64,000 nt of DNA from a virus. Lineage: Duplodnaviria; Heunggongvirae; Uroviricota; Caudoviricetes. Shown here piece by piece: positions 3,757 through 61,842 of the stretch. The position numbers and the translations under genes are program-made. The DNA lies in the IMG/VR virus record IMGVR_UViG_2872147552_000001. One strand, written 5' to 3'. Under the pieces are notes generated by a model. The model had not been told where the DNA came from. It was given only the letters and a program-made list of their open reading frames with translations, and ran no database searches. The first letter of the stretch is position 1. Each line of letters starts with the position of its first letter.

Positions 3757-4644
3757 TTACTTAAGTCCAATTTTCCCCAGACCGGAGGCCAACTTATCCA
3801 TAGTCGACTTGTTCTTCGGTTGGGATATTGTGTAGGTCGATTTGGAATGTGAGCCTACACCCTGCTTGGCTTCGCTACGCATCAATGCGTCAGCTTCCGG
3901 ATCTGCCCGCACAATGCGTTCAATCGCGGATTCAAACGGCAACGGCTTACCTTCACCGTCAACCAGAACAGCTCGTTCTTTGTGACCTGCCGGTTTGTCA
4001 TAACCCACTACGCTACCGTCTTCACCAACTTCAAAATGAGAACCGTAGATCACGCGGGCTTTTGCCGGGGTCATCAGAACTTTGTCACGTAGGAAGAGAG
4101 AGTTACTGAAGGAAGCGCCCACGGTCATCTCGACTAATTGAGATTTCAGTGATGCGTTTTCACTTTCCAGTGCTGCATAACGTTCGTCACGCTGTGCCAG
4201 CTCTGCCTGGTGTGCTTCGATCATCTGTTTTTTAACAGCATCGAACTCACCACGACGCTCCAGTTCAGCTTGCTCCGCCTCACGACGTGCGTTTTCTGCG
4301 GCCTGTTCAGCTTCTAAAAGCTGGCGAGCACGAGCCGGATCGATATCACCGTACTGAGCAAGCTGATCGGCCAATGTGCGCTCTTTCTCTTTGCGCTTCA
4401 TGTTCTCCTTCAGCAGTTCAGCACCAGCTTTCTTGGTTTTACGAAGTTCGGCCAGTAACTCTTCCTGAGTCATGCCAGCGTATTCGTCATCGCCCTTCGG
4501 CTGCTCTTTTTGTTCACCCTGTTTGTCAGGATCTTGTGTACTCTGCTCATTATCAGCAGCTACACCGCCAGCGCCTCCACGCTCATGCGCTTCAGCGACA
4601 TCCATCAGACCACGACGGGCCAAAAGCATTTGCCACAGATTCAT
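3757..4644 (-). CDS. scaffolding protein (coiled-coil, E/A/K/R/Q-rich)
   Basis: 295-aa highly charged helical sequence (ELLAELRKTKKAGAELLKENMKRKEKE...) between portal and capsid genes; AAGGAA RBS. Confidence 0.5.
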   Translation of the reverse strand: MNLWQMLLARRGLMDVAEAHERGGAGGVAADNEQSTQDPDKQGEQKEQPKGDDEYAGMTQEELLAELRKTKKAGAELLKENMKRKEKERTLADQLAQYGDIDPARARQLLEAEQAAENARREAEQAELERRGEFDAVKKQMIEAHQAELAQRDERYAALESENASLKSQLVEMTVGASFSNSLFLRDKVLMTPAKARVIYGSHFEVGEDGSVVGYDKPAGHKERAVLVDGEGKPLPFESAIERIVRADPEADALMRSEAKQGVGSHSKSTYTISQPKNKSTMDKLASGLGKIGLK

Positions 4645-4665
4645 AAAAATTCCTTTTGTTACTTA

Positions 4666-6240
4666 TCACTCGTTCTCTTGAGTAGATGAGTCCCCATTCC
4701 CTCGGGGTTGATCTTGCCCGCTTTCTTGGGCTGCACCACGATCATAAGTAAGTACTGACTTATTTTCAAGGGTATTTAGATCATTTTTTGGAGGAAAATT
4801 CAAGAGATCTTTATCAAATTCCTTTTTCATCGCCTCAGTAATGTTCGGGAAAATCTTCTCAATAAGCATTTCCATCTGGTGACGACGTACAGAGTCCGGT
4901 GCCTGAAGTAATGACAGTTTCTCGGCAACAGAAAATTCATCAGTAAGGCCACGAATATCGAAACTTTCTGGATACGCAATTAAAGAGTGGTCTTCGTCCA
5001 GATCTACCCCCATCCATTTCGCAACCAGTAGCATGATTTGGCGTTCAGCCCTTTCCAGACGCTCTGCTTTTGTGACAAGCAAGCTATTTACACGCTGGAA
5101 GTCATACATTTTTGCGGCACCAGATGAATTATCGATTCCCTGTGCGTTGTCCTGCTTCGTTCGCTCACCAGCTACACCAACTGAATGGTAGATTTCGTTA
5201 ATCACCGTCTTAATCGTAGTGATGATCATCTGAGCTTGTTTCGGGTCTGGTGACAGATAAAACGGCTGGTTTCCACCTTCAGAATCGTAGGTGAAGACTC
5301 GCTTTGTGCCCATTTCAAGCACTTTAGTGTGGTTTTCATCACCAGGTAAAAGCGACTGTACCGGTATAGCCAACTGGCTAAATGTCTGATCCTGAATAAT
5401 GGCATCAAGGTTTGACAGATAGTTTGCAACCGCACGATCAAGATAAGCGATATCATCGATCAACGATGGGCTGAAATACGGTGATTCACTTTCTCCAATA
5501 CAATCAACAGGAAACACAGGAACTACGCCGAGATTATGCTCACCGCTATCCTCTAAAATAACTTTTGCCTGACGGCGACCTGCTCCACCAGCGCCCTTCT
5601 TCACTTCCTCACGGAACAGATACCACTCGTTTTGTGTCCACAGACGATAACGTTGGTATTCCTGACCTGTAGAAGTAAAAGGATCTGCGTCATCACGAGC
5701 GACTTCCACAATTAACGCCCACAACATATTCCCGTCGTCGTCCCATGCCACATCCAGCATTTGCTGAGGTGAAATCCAGTAGGCGTAGGCGCGAGCATCT
5801 TTCTTTTTCTCGTCAGCTACTGACTCAACATCACCACTCATCGTGCTATCGACAACAACCCATATGCGACCGTAAATAGACGACTGCAAATCAATAGCGG
5901 CCATAAATGAGTCAATAGAGGCATTCTGGCGAGTCGCACGTTTCCAGAAATTGCGGATCTGCTCTGGTGCCTCTTCGATATTTCTATGAATGTCTTCTTT
6001 AAAGAGATATTTGTTGATGAGGTTTACCACCTCACGAGTGTGGTTGAAGCGATAAGCACGTTCAACTCGCTCCTTAAACTCCTGATCTCCCTCTTTAAAG
6101 TAACGAAAGATATTGTCTGTAAACCAACCACGCCCGCCAGCGTAAGTGCTGGCGAGGAAGTCCCAATGTTCTTTTTTCTTTTCGTATTCCGGGTGGCGTC
6201 GCGCCACCAGATCCTTAATTTGTTTGTCGTTCAATTCCAT
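4666..6240 (-). CDS. portal protein (by position and size)
   Basis: 524-aa ORF immediately downstream of the large terminase. Confidence 0.55.
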   Translation of the reverse strand: MELNDKQIKDLVARRHPEYEKKKEHWDFLASTYAGGRGWFTDNIFRYFKEGDQEFKERVERAYRFNHTREVVNLINKYLFKEDIHRNIEEAPEQIRNFWKRATRQNASIDSFMAAIDLQSSIYGRIWVVVDSTMSGDVESVADEKKKDARAYAYWISPQQMLDVAWDDDGNMLWALIVEVARDDADPFTSTGQEYQRYRLWTQNEWYLFREEVKKGAGGAGRRQAKVILEDSGEHNLGVVPVFPVDCIGESESPYFSPSLIDDIAYLDRAVANYLSNLDAIIQDQTFSQLAIPVQSLLPGDENHTKVLEMGTKRVFTYDSEGGNQPFYLSPDPKQAQMIITTIKTVINEIYHSVGVAGERTKQDNAQGIDNSSGAAKMYDFQRVNSLLVTKAERLERAERQIMLLVAKWMGVDLDEDHSLIAYPESFDIRGLTDEFSVAEKLSLLQAPDSVRRHQMEMLIEKIFPNITEAMKKEFDKDLLNFPPKNDLNTLENKSVLTYDRGAAQESGQDQPRGNGDSSTQENE

Positions 6241-54676: not shown

Positions 54677-54779
54677 CATCCACTATGGAGAGCAAAGAAA
54701 CCTCTGTAGAGAGCTGAATAACCGCTATGAAGAGTAAAACAACCACTCTGGAGAGCTGTATATATCCACTGTAGAGAGT
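54677..54779 (+). repeat. iteron array 1 (5 direct repeats, consensus A-A/T-CCACT-A/G-T-A/G-GAGAG-C/T, about 21-22 bp spacing)
   Basis: ATCCACTATGGAGAGC, ACCTCTGTAGAGAGC, AACCGCTATGAAGAGT, AACCACTCTGGAGAGC, ATCCACTGTAGAGAGT. Confidence 0.7.
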
Positions 54780-54890
54780 AGAGCACATTGTCTTTTATGG
54801 ATAACTTAATGACTTAATTCTTCATTAACATACTGATATACATAGATATATTTTAAACTCTACTCTTAGTCATGATTCTTATGTCCTTAA

Positions 54891-54946
54891 ATATCCACAG
54901 AAGAGTAGAGTTACCTGTTCTTGAAATCCTCTGATTTTTATCCACA
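54891..54946 (+). promoter_or_regulatory. DnaA boxes (ATATCCACA 8/9 at 54891-54899; TTATCCACA 9/9 at 54938-54946) in an AT-rich spacer
   Basis: Perfect match to the TTATCCACA consensus, located between iteron arrays 1 and 2 next to a 110-bp AT-rich stretch. Confidence 0.6.
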
Positions 54947-55057
54947 GGCCCGATCCAGTAATTCAGATCACAAAGAGAACCAAAGAGACCCATAAAGACC
55001 CAATAAGATCCCCGCCCACCTCAAACCGTTGTGCCATCTGCCTTCAGACATGATCGA

Positions 55058-55180
55058 TATCCACTATAGAGAGCGAATAATCCACTATAGGGAGCAAAGC
55101 AACCACTATAGAGAGGAGAAAAACCACTATAGACGGTAGGATAACCGCTGTGATGAGTGCTACTATCCACTGTAATCAGC
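55058..55180 (+). repeat. iteron array 2 (6 direct repeats)
   Basis: ATCCACTATAGAGAGC, ATCCACTATAGGGAGC, AACCACTATAGAGAGG, AACCACTATAGACGGT, AACCGCTGTGATGAGT, ATCCACTGTAATCAGC immediately upstream of the rep gene. Confidence 0.7.
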
Positions 55181-55220: not shown

Positions 55221-56276
55221 ATGAGCGAAAACGGCAATAAAAACATAGCGATCGTTGAAGCATTTTCAGAAACAGATAAAAAGACAGGCGAAGTTGTTAC
55301 GTTGGTTCCTAACACTAATAACACTGTTCAGCCTGTTGCTTTGATGCGTCTGGGCCTCTTCGTTCCGACGCTGAAATCGACATCCAGAGGAAGAAAGGGG
55401 CAAATGGTCTCTATGGATGCCTCTGCTGAACTCAAACAGCTGTCTCTGGCAAAAGCCGAAGGGTACGAAGACATAAGGATCTCTGGCCTTCGGCTTGATA
55501 TGGATAACGACTTTAAAACGTGGGTGGGAATAATCCACGCGTTTGCCAAACACAAGGTCGTTGGCGATACTGTCACGTTGCCGTTCGTTGAGTTTGTAAG
55601 GCTGTGTGGCATTCCGACCGCCAGGTCATCAGCGAAGTTACGCAAACGCCTGGACAGTTCGCTAAGCCGTATTGCCACAAATACCATCTCGTTCCGTAGT
55701 AAAGGCTCTGATGAGTTTTACGTAACGCATCTTGTGCAAACGGCAAAATATAGTGTCAAGCACGATACGGTCGAACTGAAAGCAGATCCCAAGATTTTCG
55801 AACTCTACCAGTTCGACAAAAAGGTTCTTCTGCAACTCCGGGCTATAAACGAACTCTCAAGAAAAGAATCCGCTCAGGCGCTTTATACTTTTATTGAAAG
55901 TTTGCCGCCTGATCCGGCACCAATATCACTAGCCCGTTTACGCGCCAGACTTAATCTGACAAGTCGCACTATTACTCAGAATGCGACGGTAAGAAAGGCT
56001 ATGGAACAGCTGCGAGAGATAGGATATCTCGATTACACGGAAGTTAAGCGCGGAAACTCGGTCTACTTCGTCATCCACTATAGGCGGCCAAAGTTACGCC
56101 AGGCACAAATATCAACAAAAATCGATAATGATGAGACGGAATATAGCCTCCCAGATGAGAATCAAGATGACATTATCGACGTTGTGCCTGACGAAAAAGA
56201 AGGCAAAATGGTCATGTTGAGTAAAGAAGAACTGGCGCTTCTCGAAGAGTTGCGCAAGGCAAAGACTCGCAAATAG
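55221..56276 (+). CDS. replication initiator protein (iteron-binding Rep candidate)
   Basis: 351-aa plus-strand ORF flanked on both sides by iteron arrays, DnaA boxes and an AT-rich region; assignment by context. Confidence 0.55.
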
Positions 56277-56278
56277 CC

Positions 56279-56395
56279 CAACCACTGTAGTTAGTAGTAA
56301 GGCTCACTATCCACTGTAGTGAGCCTTACTTATATCTGTAATTCGCTATCCACTATAGTGAGTATCGTTATCTGTTGATAACCACTGTAGGCAGT
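56279..56395 (+). repeat. iteron array 3 (4 direct repeats downstream of rep)
   Basis: AACCACTGTAGTTAGT, ATCCACTGTAGTGAGC, ATCCACTATAGTGAGT, AACCACTGTAGGCAGT. Confidence 0.65.
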
Positions 56396-56494
56396 AGAAT
56401 GCAAATACTGAATTAAATGTTAGTGATCACTAACACTGATGAAACAAGGGCTGCGAGGTTAGTGGTCACTGGGTATCTTGGAAAATTTACTGTC

Positions 56495-56760
56495 TATAGT
56501 GGTTGTTGTCGCCCTCATCTTTGAGCGTATCCACTGTGGCGAGTGGATATCCACTGAAAACAGCAAAGGCTTACTCACCATAGTGTATACCCGCTGGACA
56601 TCTCACTCCAATACTCACCATAGTGGTTGTTTGATGCGAATGAAAGGCTGTCTACTCGCTACAGTGGTTAGCAGATATGTAGGAAGAGAGGACTGCAGAC
56701 CACAGTGGATAATGAGCTGATACGAATGCGGTGAGCTGGCTACTCACCGCAGTGGTTGGT
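56495..56760 (-). repeat. iteron array 4 (about 6 copies, mostly inverted orientation)
   Basis: CTATAGTGGTTG, CACCATAGTG, CACCATAGTGGTTG, CTACAGTGGTT, CCACAGTGGATAAT, CACCGCAGTGGTTGG are reverse complements of the iteron core. Confidence 0.55.
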
Positions 56761-57858: not shown

Positions 57859-58284
57859 TCAATCTTCTTGTTTAGGGAAAAACTGTTCAATAACTCTGTC
57901 AACGGCTGTGTCTATATGGAGTAGATGCCACACAACCATATCTTTGCTTCCCATGCCTTGTGTGAATATCACGTCATACTTACGCCATGCGCAGTGGAAC
58001 CAATATGCTGAGTCATCAATTGGTAAATCCTCTCCCGCCTCTTTGAAGTATTTCAGCAGCATTGCCTGCTCTGCCGTTGGCGTTGGACCTATTTCCTGAG
58101 CGTACATACGGATGAATCGCTGCCAGTCTGTCTCGTCGGGGGTTGGATCTGGTGGGGTCATTTCTGCGATAGCGTTTCGTAGCTGATGCGCCCAATCAGG
58201 TTCAGGAAAGCCTTTTGCTACTTCATCATCAATAACATCCAGAGCCACGTTTGCGGCATCGTAGAGTTTCTTAATAACTGTCAT
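57859..58284 (-). CDS. hypothetical protein
   Basis: 141-aa ORF behind promoter module copy at 58301-58332. Confidence 0.4.
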   Translation of the reverse strand: MTVIKKLYDAANVALDVIDDEVAKGFPEPDWAHQLRNAIAEMTPPDPTPDETDWQRFIRMYAQEIGPTPTAEQAMLLKYFKEAGEDLPIDDSAYWFHCAWRKYDVIFTQGMGSKDMVVWHLLHIDTAVDRVIEQFFPKQED

Positions 58285-58332: not shown

Positions 58333-58359
58333 ATAAAAAAGGCGTCCAACTGGACGCCT
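58333..58359 (-). terminator. rho-independent terminator
   Basis: Minus-strand hairpin AGGCGTCCAGTTGGACGCCT followed by TTTTTTAT. Confidence 0.6.
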
Positions 58360-58375: not shown

Positions 58376-59206
58376 TTATTTCACTGTAATGAAAGGAGTG
58401 TTAGCCCCTTGAGTCATGTACTGCGGTAACTGGCCATTCCATTTATTGATGGCTTCCAGTTCCATAACGTTCGGGTTTTGACGCAGAGCTTCACCGCGCA
58501 GACGAATGGCGTCTGCTTCTGCTTGCGCACGAGCACGGATAGCATCAGCTTCACCATTAGCCTGTTCACGTAGCATATTCGCCTCAGCTTTACGTTGTTC
58601 AACTTCCTGCTGACGTTGCAGAGTACGCTGGTTAGCCGTTACTTTGGCGTTGATAGATTCTATGACGGTTTTTGGGTAATCAGGCTTTCCAACCCATGAC
58701 AGGCTCAGTACCTCAATACCAACCGGAGACATCTCTTTCTGAATATCTTTCAGTGCGTTGTCCAGCAATTGCGCCTTACCACCGTCGATAAATGAGTCAG
58801 TGGTCATACGGCTGGCCAAACGGTTTAGAGAGTCGGCAATTTTCTGACGCAGATCTGATTCGGTGATATCGTCTACGCCTTTGCGATAGGTCTGGAACAC
58901 CGTCGTTACCTTGTCACGATTAACCAGATACGCAACGCCAATTTTGTGACCAATAGCAGTACCGTCACTCATCTGGAATGTGAATGGCTCGTCGTAGGTC
59001 TTCATTTGTTTGAAGGTCGGGAATACGTAAAGTTCGGTGTTAAGACCTGTCCATTGGCGACCAACGCCAACCACTTCACCAATCCCTTTGTCTTCACCTA
59101 ATTTGTTTACTTTGATGCCAACGTATCCAGGCTCCACGCGATCGCAGCCAGTAAGACCCATTGTGCAAATAGCCGCCAGAGCAACTGCAAGTAAACCTTT
59201 CTTCAT
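58376..59206 (-). CDS. SPFH/band-7 (prohibitin-like) domain lipoprotein
   Basis: Lipobox LTGC after signal peptide; SPFH-type core and Ala/Glu/Arg/Gln-rich coiled-coil C-terminus (QRKAEANMLREQANGEADAIRARAQAEADAIRLRGEA). Confidence 0.65.
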   Translation of the reverse strand: MKKGLLAVALAAICTMGLTGCDRVEPGYVGIKVNKLGEDKGIGEVVGVGRQWTGLNTELYVFPTFKQMKTYDEPFTFQMSDGTAIGHKIGVAYLVNRDKVTTVFQTYRKGVDDITESDLRQKIADSLNRLASRMTTDSFIDGGKAQLLDNALKDIQKEMSPVGIEVLSLSWVGKPDYPKTVIESINAKVTANQRTLQRQQEVEQRKAEANMLREQANGEADAIRARAQAEADAIRLRGEALRQNPNVMELEAINKWNGQLPQYMTQGANTPFITVK

Positions 59207-59209
59207 TAC

Positions 59210-59410
59210 TTATTTCCCCTTTGCTTTGATTAATGAGTTGATAAACTTACGACCAGCAATAAGACCGATTACAGGAGCACCAAAACCAACGATAACTCCA
59301 AACATGACGGCTAAATCACTCTTGGTAGAAATCAGCGACGGAACCAGTAAACCGTAGATGAGAGCCACTGAAAGGCCTGTGGCTACTGCCAATAGATAGA
59401 TTTTGATCAT
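59210..59410 (-). CDS. small two-helix membrane protein (NfeD-like partner candidate)
   Basis: 66-aa hydrophobic ORF 3 nt upstream of the SPFH gene; AGGAAAACAC RBS. Confidence 0.45.
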   Translation of the reverse strand: MIKIYLLAVATGLSVALIYGLLVPSLISTKSDLAVMFGVIVGFGAPVIGLIAGRKFINSLIKAKGK

Positions 59411-59472
59411 GTGTTTTCCTATGTGGTTGTTATGCGAAAATAATAAGTAAGTGCTTATATATTTTCAAGAGA

Positions 59473-59499
59473 TAAAAAAGGCGTCCTGTGGACGCCTTG
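59473..59499 (-). terminator. rho-independent terminator
   Basis: Minus-strand hairpin AAGGCGTCCACAGGACGCCTT followed by TTTTTATCTC. Confidence 0.6.
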
Positions 59500-59502
59500 T
59501 GT

Positions 59503-61842
59503 TTACTCTTCTACTGACTCGGTGGGGTTGTCTTTTGCTCTTCGGTCGTCGATTGCCTGCAAAGCCGCAATGATTTCAGCCAGTGGCTTCTCCCGATACA
59601 TCTCGACGATCTGCGATTTGGTGTATTTCTTGTCACCAATTTCAACTCGCCCGCTGGCGTTCTTTGGCAGGTATCCTTCTTCCAGCATGTACTCGACGAG
59701 CGATTCGATAACGTCGAGGCCACGAGTAGGATCGAAGTAGAATTTCCAGGTGCATTTGCCATACGGTGGTGCAACTTTGTTTTTGATGCATTCTGCGCCT
59801 ACGTCCTGGCCGATCTTCTCTTTACCATCCTTCATCACCGATGCACCAAGACGGATACGTACAGAAGCGTAGAACTTCGGTGAATCTCCACCTGGCGACG
59901 TAGTAGGGTCGCCAAACATTACACCGATTTTTGTGCGAACCTGATTCAAGAAGATGATGCAGGCGTTGTATTTGCGTGCCCACAAAGCCAGAGTAGGGAA
60001 GTTCGCACTCGTCGCACGAGCCAGTGCCGTATTGTCGTTCATGTTTAGCTGATCTTTGTCTTTGGCAGTGCCTTCAGCCATCTTTTCGAACTTCTCGGCT
60101 TTGGAGTTCGGAACCATAGACGCAAGAGAGTCAGCCACGATACAGATTGGTGCTGATTCGGGGATAAGCTCTTCATCACGAACCAATTTAAGTATTGTGC
60201 CGATCAACTCTACAGAGTCTTCGAAGGTATCTGGCTGCTTGTATACCCACTGACCGTCATCCTCATCTGCGTTCAGGCCATTGGCGACAGCCAGGCCAAC
60301 GTCAAAACTGTTTTCATGATCGAGGAATACCGCCAGACCATCCTGTTTTTGTGCTGACACCATCGCAGCCGTCGCGAGGAATGTGTTGTGGCTGATAATC
60401 CCGTTAGACCAGAAAGAGTGTGTTTCCGGCATCGCTACGTCGAACGTTGGTGCTTCACCTTCCTCAATAGCCACGACTTCGTCGTAGAACAAGTTAGAGC
60501 CAATTACCGCTGCCAGTTGTGCAAACAGATGCTCGTTAAAACGATTCTTTCTGCCAATGAAGGAGACATAGATTTCTCGCAGTTTGTCTATTCCGACACG
60601 ATCGCCGCGGCCAATAACGTGGTCTACCAGAGCGTAGTCTTCACGGGTGGTCTTGGTGAGCGACTCGTAGAGTGATTTCACTAAGCCGCTGATGTGCGGA
60701 ACATAGCCTGAGTAAGTGCGGTCAAAACCAATGTCCCGTTTGGTTGCCACTGATAAACGTGCCGGAGATTCGAAACCAATCGTTGACAGAAAAAGGTCGT
60801 AATTAGAGCCACTGAATGACAGCCGGTAATATGTATTTTCATAACCCGCGACGTGTTTTTCAGAGATAGTTGACGTAATCCCCAGATTCAGGAGCATGAG
60901 GCGAATTTGCTGTAGCAGCAGCCCACTCGCGCTCACAACCTCAATGCAGCGACCATCATTGACGTGGCATTCCAGCTCAAAGTAGCCGCGAAGGAATGCA
61001 ATTTGAGCCTCGCTATTGGCGCGACGCACACTCAACGGAACCTGCTTGCCAGCAGCTTTCTCATACTCCAGACCATATTCTTTAAAAAGCAGCGAACGCA
61101 CCTCTTTGCTAAACAGCACATGGTCTTCCGAGCCGTTATGTTTTCTCGTAACTGGCATCTTGTCTGATACCAGCGAAATGAGGCGGTAGTACTCATCCTT
61201 GATGAATGGATCTGTGTTAGAAAAATGCACAGAATTTTCAGAGGCCACGTATCCGTCAGCAATTAAATAGCCCATCAGTTTTGCGATATTGGCATCCAGG
61301 TGCTGATCGCCGAATTGATGTGTGCCAACCATTGAAGGAATCGTGTCGCCTACACTGATTTTTTCAGCATACCGCCAGACGATATTGCCTAAGTCGTCAA
61401 CCACACGGATTGGGTGACGGAACGTAGCCTCGATGTAACCCCCTGATGCCAGCTTAATGCGCTTGAATTTGCGACGGTTGTTCCATGTCAGGTGTGAGGT
61501 CTTCTCTATCACGCCATTTTCATTGATGAGTCCAACGTTATGCTCTACATCGCGAGTAGTGCATGTCGCTTTGTACCCTTCAATCTCAAACAACTCTTTC
61601 ACTGTTACCATTCCACGCTCCGTCAGCAGCATGGTGTCTGCGGTAACACATTTCCCCGCACTTGGTGGCCCGAATACTTCTACGATACGACCACATGGGA
61701 AACCGCCATCGTAACGACCGGAAATAGCTTTGTTTAACGGAGGAAAGCCTGTGTCAATCCAATGAGTTACTTTCTGAATTTCGTCGTTGCTACCGATTTT
61801 CTTTTTCAGAGCAAGTGCCAGTGCGGATTTTCCTTTTGCCAT
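59503..61842 (-). CDS. RecA/UvsX-family recombinase interrupted by an intein
   Basis: Extein reads GRIVEVFGPPSAGK-[intein]-TFLATAAMVSAQKQDGLAVFLDHENSF..., colinear with RecA GRIVEIYGPESSGKTT...; 779-aa precursor. Confidence 0.8.
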   Translation of the reverse strand: MAKGKSALALALKKKIGSNDEIQKVTHWIDTGFPPLNKAISGRYDGGFPCGRIVEVFGPPSAGKCVTADTMLLTERGMVTVKELFEIEGYKATCTTRDVEHNVGLINENGVIEKTSHLTWNNRRKFKRIKLASGGYIEATFRHPIRVVDDLGNIVWRYAEKISVGDTIPSMVGTHQFGDQHLDANIAKLMGYLIADGYVASENSVHFSNTDPFIKDEYYRLISLVSDKMPVTRKHNGSEDHVLFSKEVRSLLFKEYGLEYEKAAGKQVPLSVRRANSEAQIAFLRGYFELECHVNDGRCIEVVSASGLLLQQIRLMLLNLGITSTISEKHVAGYENTYYRLSFSGSNYDLFLSTIGFESPARLSVATKRDIGFDRTYSGYVPHISGLVKSLYESLTKTTREDYALVDHVIGRGDRVGIDKLREIYVSFIGRKNRFNEHLFAQLAAVIGSNLFYDEVVAIEEGEAPTFDVAMPETHSFWSNGIISHNTFLATAAMVSAQKQDGLAVFLDHENSFDVGLAVANGLNADEDDGQWVYKQPDTFEDSVELIGTILKLVRDEELIPESAPICIVADSLASMVPNSKAEKFEKMAEGTAKDKDQLNMNDNTALARATSANFPTLALWARKYNACIIFLNQVRTKIGVMFGDPTTSPGGDSPKFYASVRIRLGASVMKDGKEKIGQDVGAECIKNKVAPPYGKCTWKFYFDPTRGLDVIESLVEYMLEEGYLPKNASGRVEIGDKKYTKSQIVEMYREKPLAEIIAALQAIDDRRAKDNPTESVEE
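60385..61650 (-). mobile_element. intein (422 aa) with LAGLIDADG homing-endonuclease domain, inserted in the recombinase Walker A motif
   Basis: Starts with Cys (CVTADTMLLTERG), ends His-Asn followed by Thr (+1); internal LMGYLIADGYV and FLRGYFELECHVN LAGLIDADG-like motifs. Confidence 0.75.

Follow-up and report, generated by a model that had tools for sequence, protein, structure and literature searches.

The 64-kb stretch of DNA analysed here, from the virus record IMGVR_UViG_2872147552_000001 (Caudoviricetes), is referred to as the window, and all coordinates follow its numbering. On its minus strand lies a cassette of two genes, encoding a 66-amino-acid membrane protein and a 276-amino-acid lipoprotein of the SPFH (Band-7) type. 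The two open reading frames (ORFs), with a gap of 3 nucleotides (nt) between the stop codon of the first and the second, were recovered where a preliminary description of the sequence had placed them. The features of the cassette and its borders are as follows.

59478..59498, minus strand: terminator-like hairpin ending the upstream recA, which forms the upstream boundary of the cassette (9-bp stem, 6 G-C pairs, T-run).
59440..59468, minus strand: sigma-70 promoter-like sequence TTGAAA-17-TATTAT, about 30 nt upstream of the 66-amino-acid gene (10/12 consensus matches).
59210..59410, minus strand: 66-amino-acid two-helix membrane hairpin protein (PHROG 1130; counterpart of gp19 of phage N4).
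59327..59341, minus strand: codons of P24-S-L-I-S28, the P-x-[LM]-[ILV]-S motif at the junction of helix 1 with the predicted periplasmic turn (two alignments).
58376..59206, minus strand: 276-amino-acid SPFH/Band-7 lipoprotein (PHROG 200; N4 gp20 is 64% identical).
59141..59206, minus strand: predicted signal peptide with lipobox LTG-C21 and Asp22 at position +2 (sequence).
58580..59140, minus strand: SPFH domain, residues 23-209 (Pfam envelope and AlphaFold2 model).
58478..58672, minus strand: long helix, residues 179-243, equivalent to the wall-forming helix of solved SPFH cages (AlphaFold2 and fold alignments).
58424..58444, minus strand: C-terminal family motif K-W-N-G-Q-L-P (conservation of W256, G258 and P261).
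58340..58359, minus strand: terminator-like hairpin ending the cassette (8-bp stem, 6 G-C pairs, T-run).

An AAGGGG Shine-Dalgarno-like run was found within the last codons of the 66-amino-acid gene, a few bases before the ATG of the lipoprotein gene, suggesting coupled translation of the pair. Terminator-like sites were enriched in the region, with 8 found against 2.5 expected, and the hairpin with its T-run at 58359..58340 (minus strand) agrees with the terminator that the preliminary description had assigned to the pair. Hairpins of the form GGCGTCC-N3-5-GGACGCC occurred exactly twice in the window, bracketing the cassette, with 0 expected by chance; both are terminator-like for minus-strand transcripts (58341-58358 and 59480-59496). 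Promoter-like sites were not enriched (4 found in the region against 5.0 expected from shuffles), and the consensus match upstream of the first gene is only a plausible promoter of the cassette. In this moron-like layout, the flanking terminators are clear, the promoter matches 10 of 12 consensus positions in a non-enriched scan and the G+C content shows no deviation across the cassette, and the pair looks like a transcription unit of its own, as predicted from these signals. The conservation of both genes across the phage, plasmid, genome and metagenome records searched shows that they are real genes.

The larger protein had been described from its letters as an SPFH-type lipoprotein, an assignment that the profile and structure searches confirmed. 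The Pfam Band_7/SPFH profile (PF01145) matched residues 23-209 with an E-value of 2.6e-30 and 106.2 bits, above the curated cut-off of 23.6 bits, and the match covered profile positions 2-176 of 176, while phrog_200 matched residues 1-275 (E = 3e-108). After a hydrophobic signal peptide, the sequence MKKGLLAVALAAICTMGLTG-C21 (L-T-G-C21) fits the lipobox pattern [LVI][ASTVI][GAS]C. The lipobox Cys is kept by most members of a set of 55 representatives with 28-61% identity to the query; in this set, G49, W256 and G258 are invariant and P261 is present in at least 90%. A closer set of 10 sequences shows no variation at W256, G258 or P261, and the C-terminal motif of the family reads K-W-(D/N)-G-x-L-P. 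In E. coli, Asp at position +2 is the classical signal for inner-membrane retention through Lol avoidance. Retention of the lipoprotein in the inner membrane is therefore predicted from Asp22, and Asp was found at +2 in 93 of the 99 lipoboxes detected among close enterobacterial homologs (at least 70% identical). In some SPFH relatives the Cys is missing and an uncleaved hydrophobic anchor at the N-terminus takes its place; these relatives must themselves sit in the inner membrane, suggesting that the family resides at the inner membrane with its SPFH part outside the cytoplasm.

The AlphaFold2 model of the lipoprotein, computed with 55 diverse relatives, reached a mean predicted local distance difference test (pLDDT) score of 92.5 and comprises strands (residues 21-95), helices (97-159), a strand (164-176), a long helix (179-243) and a short one (246-255), followed by a tail of lower confidence. 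The long Ala/Glu/Arg/Gln-rich tail noted in the preliminary description is modelled as a single continuous helix of 65 residues (179-243) with a pLDDT of about 95. A fold search against the PDB returned 64 chains at E ≤ 0.001, and all 50 listed were SPFH-family or major vault proteins. The best solved folds were HflK (7vhq_E, E = 5e-14), prohibitin (8rrh and 9o9z), HflC and erlin (9vvj), and the HflK/C, prohibitin and erlin chains aligned to the model over its full length, whereas QmcA from the SPFH-NfeD complex 8z5g ranked only 38th. Prohibitin and erlin, which gave high fold matches (E ~1e-13, with TM-scores up to 0.61-0.62 for erlin), form SPFH rings on the non-cytoplasmic face of membranes, but they are hetero-oligomers of eukaryotic organelles with neither a lipoprotein anchor nor a hairpin partner. 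In BFVD, a fold search with the lipoprotein found only unannotated viral Band-7 proteins.

The subunits of the E. coli HflK/HflC cage (7vhq, 7wi3 and 9cz2) share with the lipoprotein the order of anchor, SPFH domain, long helix, short helix and C-terminal tail, and lie on the periplasmic side, as is predicted for the lipoprotein. HflK was also its sole sequence-level PDB match (E = 0.007), and the best NCBIfam matches were HflC (TIGR01932, E = 2e-7) and HflK (TIGR01933). However, these scores were far below the equivalog cut-offs (30.2 against 134.4 bits for HflC and 18.7 against 159.4 bits for HflK) and the identity to HflK/C was 17-19%, so that orthology with either was rejected; the lipoprotein is HflK/C-like in build, but not an orthologue. 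Furthermore, the cassette has one SPFH gene rather than an HflK/HflC pair, its product is lipid-anchored instead of held by a transmembrane helix and has a dedicated partner with two transmembrane helices, and the W-x-G-x-x-P motif at the C-terminus is specific to the family of the window protein. Membership in the flotillins was likewise rejected, with 19.9 against 27 bits for Pfam Flot (PF15975) and 16 against 700 bits for FloT (NF058507).

Prohibitin is known to partner with an FtsH-type protease. HflK/C is found in complex with FtsH in PDB 7wi3 and 9cz2, and the likeness in sequence, fold and predicted non-cytoplasmic location raises the possibility that a periplasmic phage SPFH ring mimics HflK/C, capturing or competing for FtsH or another membrane protease and thereby altering the turnover of phage or host proteins. 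As FtsH is universal in bacteria, such a target would accord with the family's very wide host range. Against this reading stand the low scores and identity given above, the dedicated hairpin partner, which it leaves unexplained, and the occurrence of the genes in strictly virulent phages, which have no lysis-lysogeny decision to tune. We consider it unlikely.

Public databases list members of the lipoprotein family as "lipoprotein", "SPFH domain-containing protein", "band 7" and "HflK", and their GenBank product names also include "serine protease", "SPFH serine protease", "transposase" and "transposase fusion protein". A Pfam scan of the lipoprotein found no protease or transposase domain, and the "serine protease" and "transposase" names look like unsupported, propagated errors.

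The 66-amino-acid protein matched phrog_1130, annotated as "membrane protein", over residues 1-65 (E = 2.1e-25); this family, PHROG 1130, is unnamed and without a Pfam model. The protein itself had no Pfam match at E ≤ 0.01, no NCBIfam relative and no PDB relative at E < 0.1, and a profile search of 5.8 billion proteins with the hairpin returned only unnamed small proteins and one UniRef entry (P0334) with the automatic label "Holin". AlphaFold2 modelled two helices (residues 2-27 and 32-64) joined by a turn (28-31), with no strands and a mean pLDDT of 78. P24 was invariant and S28 was present in at least 90% in each of two independent alignments, one of 35 and one of 32 diverse members, whereas outside the P-x-[LM]-[ILV]-S motif the hairpin drifts to about 22% identity. 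With a single Lys at the N-terminus, a neutral turn (S-T-K-S-D) and a strongly basic C-terminal tail (RKFINSLIKAKGK), both ends would be cytoplasmic under the positive-inside rule. The turn of 4-5 residues would then be the only part of the hairpin exposed to the periplasm.

To describe the linkage of the two genes, we used 166 loci with an SPFH relative, whose sources were phage records, contigs of viruses and bacterial contigs at one genome per species. An iterated hidden Markov model found the hairpin gene directly upstream on the same strand in 142 of the 166 loci. By inspection, a two-helix ORF of 55-75 amino acids carrying the motif was recognized in 7 further loci and in locus L130, and in 4 loci the hairpin gene lay further upstream, at about 0.5-1 kb. 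Of the 163 loci that could be evaluated, 154 thus had the hairpin gene next to the SPFH gene or nearly so, 3 other loci being cut by a contig end. Many of the 154 are closely related; they amount to 123 distinct protein pairs, with about 45 clusters of hairpins at 60% identity. The 9 loci without it carry distant copies, at 31-37% identity, and come from contigs of Bacteroidota, Ignavibacteriota/Kapaibacteria and one Desulfosporosinus metagenome-assembled genome; their neighbours, where readable, are not phage-like. An all-against-all comparison of neighbours in the 166 loci found no third gene conserved across lineages. These data indicate that the hairpin is a near-obligate partner of the SPFH lipoprotein.

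The two proteins also occur fused. A search of 1.84 billion cluster representatives yielded 195 clusters at E ≤ 1e-30, and about 18 of the best 150 representatives at 50% identity are in-frame hairpin-lipobox-SPFH fusions of 320-392 amino acids, in which the hairpin part bears the P-x-[LM]-[ILV]-S motif as well, with the Cys kept in all 18. Three hairpin-SPFH fusions were also read directly in genomic DNA, and a Pfam scan of 6 natural fusions gave only sub-threshold chance matches for the N-terminal part. In a mirror-tree analysis, the identity matrices of the hairpin and SPFH proteins correlated overall with r = 0.77 (Mantel 0 of 500). The pair of the P2-like phage P88 has an SPFH protein 77% identical and a hairpin just 25% identical to those of the window. 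We think it quite probable that the two proteins act as one complex.

Some loci depart from the simple two-gene arrangement. Extra small ORFs (54-73 amino acids) were found between the hairpin and SPFH genes in PVP-SE1, Pseudomonas phage TL and phiEa104, and the two of them that were scanned had no Pfam match.

L085 3829-3993: inserted small ORF.
L086 3725-3943: inserted small ORF.
L169 2277-2498: inserted small ORF.

In Erwinia phage phiEa104, the hairpin gene lies one gene upstream and is annotated only as a 38-amino-acid fragment. In chromosomal copies of Shigella flexneri and E. coli (L091 and L092, ~4230-5000), about 770 bp without a convincing ORF separate the two genes. Moreover, a metagenomic protein of 303 amino acids (P0018) combines PF01145 with PF23885 and is thus an SPFH-DUF7238 fusion, probably arising from a deletion or an assembly artefact.

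The preliminary description had likened the small membrane protein to partners of the NfeD type. The partnership itself stood, since the protein is a dedicated two-helix partner, linked in 154 of 163 evaluable loci and fused in some lineages, but the NfeD analogy fell: a search of the 66-amino-acid protein against Pfam, which includes NfeD, found no match at E ≤ 0.01, and an all-helical model of this size has no room for the oligonucleotide/oligosaccharide-binding (OB) fold of an NfeD domain. A canonical SPFH-NfeD operon is accordingly given next to no weight here. It is true that QmcA-YbbJ, YqiK-YqiJ and FloT-YuaF resemble the cassette in having a gene for a small membrane protein directly upstream of and coupled to the SPFH gene, that the gene order is that of ybbJ-qmcA-type operons with, probably, translational coupling, that the partner presumably lies within the membrane patch under the SPFH ring in both, and that the QmcA-YbbJ complex (8z5g) is among the structural matches. 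QmcA faces the cytoplasm, however, whereas the SPFH lipoprotein is predicted to face the periplasm, and the low rank of QmcA in the fold search speaks against such an operon as well.

Within an SSU5-like E. coli phage-plasmid, the window makes up the half devoted to replication and accessory functions. This region shares 99.4% identity with "Escherichia phage CMS-2020a" (107.6 kb) and 94.6% with phage Cyrano (108 kb), whose annotation calls the two genes "membrane protein" and "Stomatin-like integral membrane protein". The neighbours of the pair are recA, a T4 gp32-like single-stranded DNA-binding protein gene, uvsY, a P1-type repA with iterons and genes of nucleotide metabolism. The recA gene (59503-61842, minus strand) encodes 779 amino acids and is interrupted by an intein with a LAGLIDADG homing endonuclease (Pfam RecA, Intein_splicing and LAGLIDADG_3), while an intein-less RecA of 357 amino acids occupies the same place in close viral contigs such as L003. 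The gene directly downstream of the cassette (57859-58284, minus strand) encodes a DUF7238 protein. Arrays of iterons of about 16 nt, ATCCACT[A/G]TAG[A/T]GAG, often 21 bp apart, lie on both sides of a Rep3-type repA (55221-56276), at 54678-55179 and 56279-56562, resembling a P1-type origin and copy-control locus. The cassette was found in 178 PLSDB plasmids, 175 of which are non-mobilizable, and in 283 of 5426 complete E. coli genomes (about 5%), with 296 matching places, 195 on plasmids and 101 on chromosomes. The plasmid matches listed are about 100-160 kb, mostly about 110 kb, in size and cover the whole query at 95-99.6% identity. Among those listed, the chromosomal matches are about 76% identical; we take these records to be prophages.

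Beyond these elements, tblastn found the SPFH protein in 413 phage records. Its carriers include temperate phages (phiP27, Stx2a phages, P88 and SSU5-like phage-plasmids), N4-like, PVP-SE1-like, Kolesnikvirus, Bruynoghevirus and phiCbK phages, as well as crAss-like phages and Lak megaphages; we take the N4-like, PVP-SE1-like, Kolesnikvirus, Bruynoghevirus and phiCbK lineages, TL and phiEa104 to be virulent. Across phages of Proteobacteria, Bacteroidota and other hosts, the family keeps 30-45% identity together with its invariant residues. The closest known counterpart is in phage N4, which has the same two genes in the same order, overlapping or nearly abutting: gp19 (68 amino acids, "membrane protein") overlaps gp20 (278 amino acids, "lipoprotein"). 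N4 gp20 is 64% identical to the window lipoprotein over 274 residues, and gp19 matches the profile of the hairpin family with a probability of 97.5%. Different from the window pair, which forms a separate promoter-terminator cassette on a phage-plasmid, the N4 pair lies beside gp18 in the early/middle region of a strictly virulent podovirus.

In the eight phage types examined, including P88, phiP27, Moo19/N4, PVP-SE1, TL and phiEa104, the genes around the pair are early, replication or recombination genes, and it never adjoins lysis genes or an endolysin gene. This bears on a role in lysis timing, in which the 66-amino-acid protein would be a hairpin like a class II holin or antiholin, restrained by the SPFH ring as in lysis inhibition. 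Its size, its two helices, the predicted topology with both termini inside and the basic C-terminal tail resemble class II holins, the family includes the "Holin"-labelled UniRef entry, and N4, which carries gp19 and gp20, is reported to show lysis inhibition (PMC12642591). Although the architecture fits, a class II holin was rejected by context, the neighbours being recA, DUF7238 and repA in the window, and genes of the early or DNA-metabolism type in other phages. In addition, a 2025 study of N4 lysis genes makes no mention of gp19, gp20, a lipoprotein or SPFH, and a chromosomal copy in Rhodanobacteraceae has no phage context. A part in lysis timing therefore seems very improbable to us.

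The same gene neighbourhoods are pertinent to superinfection exclusion, in which the complex would block the genome entry of a second phage at the periplasmic face of the inner membrane. Phage membrane proteins and lipoproteins that exclude other phages include T4 Imm and Sp, T5 Llp and P22 SieA, and the phage lipoprotein Ltp offers a further precedent. The moron-like layout on a phage-plasmid, with its own promoter-like site and terminators, and the early/middle position in virulent phages would suit such a role. The gene directly before the pair in N4 and the N4-like Moo19 (L167 1669-1983 and L084 3391-3705) is annotated as similar to P22 gp17, with the copy in Moo19 matching PF17420, the family named "superinfection exclusion gene product 17" (E = 2.9e-46). 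Exclusion proteins are, however, usually lineage-specific, yet this family keeps its identity across phages of very different hosts, and it has a vertically inherited chromosomal copy in Rhodanobacteraceae. Neither protein matched a defence model of PADLOC-DB 2.0 at E ≤ 0.1. We regard exclusion as unlikely.

The chromosomal copy was found in at least 22 Rhodanobacteraceae species (Dyella and relatives; L101-L138), where the pair is syntenic and divergent from a blaI-like gene (PF03965) and a blaR1-like gene (PF05569, M56 peptidase), followed by DUF2076 and nrdBA. This copy has the look of a cellular form of the module that is passed on by vertical descent; the module is thus not exclusively viral. 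The membrane metalloprotease of the BlaR1 type that adjoins it may also be counted in favour of the mimicry of HflK/C discussed above.

A further possibility is that the lipoprotein acts on an animal host, as a virulence-related or immune-stimulating surface or vesicle lipoprotein of lysogenic conversion. TLR2 activation is a general property of bacterial lipoproteins, which counts against this reading. So do the abundance of the family in virulent phages and in phages of environmental bacteria, and the Asp at +2, which predicts inner-membrane retention. The reading draws on PM0222 (Pmorf0222) of Pasteurella multocida, likened by description only: a prophage-borne, HflK/C-like SPFH protein reported in outer-membrane vesicles, which activates Toll-like receptors TLR1/2 and whose deletion attenuates virulence in mice (PMC9872710). 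It is the only prophage SPFH protein with experiments that we found in the literature, and its phenotype is uninformative on what it does for the phage. We judge a host-directed role to be highly improbable.

Based on these data, we tentatively propose that the two genes of the cassette make up a self-contained membrane module, which passes from one phage genome to another and would be expressed from a promoter of its own here and in early or middle operons in virulent phages. The first gene would supply a helical hairpin of the inner membrane with both ends in the cytoplasm, and the second a lipoprotein held on the periplasmic face of the same membrane. The lipoprotein would assemble into a ring or dome fencing a membrane patch, as HflK/C, prohibitin and erlin do and as the solved cages of stomatin, flotillin and QmcA-YbbJ also suggest, and that it is a periplasm-facing SPFH ring of the inner membrane is, on these comparisons, reasonably likely. 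The hairpin would be the membrane-embedded subunit of this ring, contacting it through the conserved Pro-x-Leu-x-Ser turn and adding two transmembrane "pickets" per protomer. Our best guess for the role is that the complex stabilises or insulates the inner membrane, so that its barrier and energisation are kept during phage carriage or replication. We favour such a role because the module is conserved independently of the host, because its chromosomal copy stands beside an envelope-type sensor-regulator and because bacterial SPFH proteins have reported links to membrane-stress tolerance; a protective function specifically is nevertheless a guess, and rather a doubtful one. As a whole, the statement of an SPFH ring with a hairpin subunit and a membrane-stabilising role is one we put forward with less than even confidence.

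As for the reported links, bacterial SPFH proteins have been connected with membrane-stress tolerance in several papers (PMC10434171, PMC8581546 and PMC11920096). A precedent for the recruitment of an SPFH protein by small membrane proteins is reported from Bacillus subtilis, where SamG and SamH recruit SamI (YdjG/H/I) to the membrane in an envelope-stress module with PspA (PMC8581546; bioRxiv 10.64898/2026.02.06.704340). That system differs in that its SPFH protein is cytosolic, its partners are unrelated and it is linked to PspA, whereas no PspA-like gene adjoins the pair in the window.

Several points weigh against this proposal. The models are of monomers, and we infer the oligomeric cage, the contact with the hairpin and the inner-membrane location from analogy and sequence rules. 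The correlation of the hairpin and SPFH trees falls to r = 0.05 among pairs below 60% SPFH identity, so that long-range co-evolution is not demonstrated, which we attribute to the drift of the hairpin to about 22% identity. If PM0222 is homologous, its reported presence in outer-membrane vesicles (PMC9872710) does not fit a strict inner-membrane site. The literature on the phage family held no experimental datum, and papers of 2021 and June 2026 call the role unclear. The data do not favour membrane protection over control of FtsH or superinfection exclusion. A variant that we find unlikely, though it keeps the SPFH cage, is a sealed patch with three membrane anchors per protomer (two helices and a lipid, or three helices in the fusions), which would serve diverse virulent and temperate phages as a generic shield against the genomes of competing phages or against membrane-permeabilising effectors of abortive infection.

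Public databases already contain the genes themselves, under names that do not agree. The literature searched on SPFH proteins in connection with phages or prophages, superinfection, defence or the N4 genes gp19 and gp20 yielded no functional study, only remarks of unclear role in genome reports, and we found no paper noting the conserved hairpin partner or the fusions. New here are the near-obligate hairpin partner, the in-frame fusions, the invariant Pro and near-invariant Ser of the hairpin, and its identity as a protein other than NfeD. CRISPRi-ART fitness screens have covered T4, T5, SUSP1 and PTXU04, and not N4 genome-wide; a search with an Ounavirinae SPFH protein matched 223 phage records, and the 60 of them that were listed did not include SUSP1.

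SPFH proteins (prohibitins, stomatins, flotillins and HflK/C) occur across every domain of life, and their cages were solved only recently, with their function still debated. That a phage carries an SPFH gene is not in itself surprising. The family described here is a minimal, mobile, two-gene version of this system that is widespread and is present in the long-studied model phage N4, in which the pair can be tested directly. With the hairpin as an obligate and sometimes fused partner, it offers a defined complex that can be purified, imaged and deleted. If the pair proved dispensable, it would be an ordinary accessory gene pair, and the "serine protease" and "transposase" names would still need correcting. 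If it shields the inner membrane or hijacks FtsH, it would represent a new class of phage-host interaction and provide a simple model of a bacterial SPFH cage.

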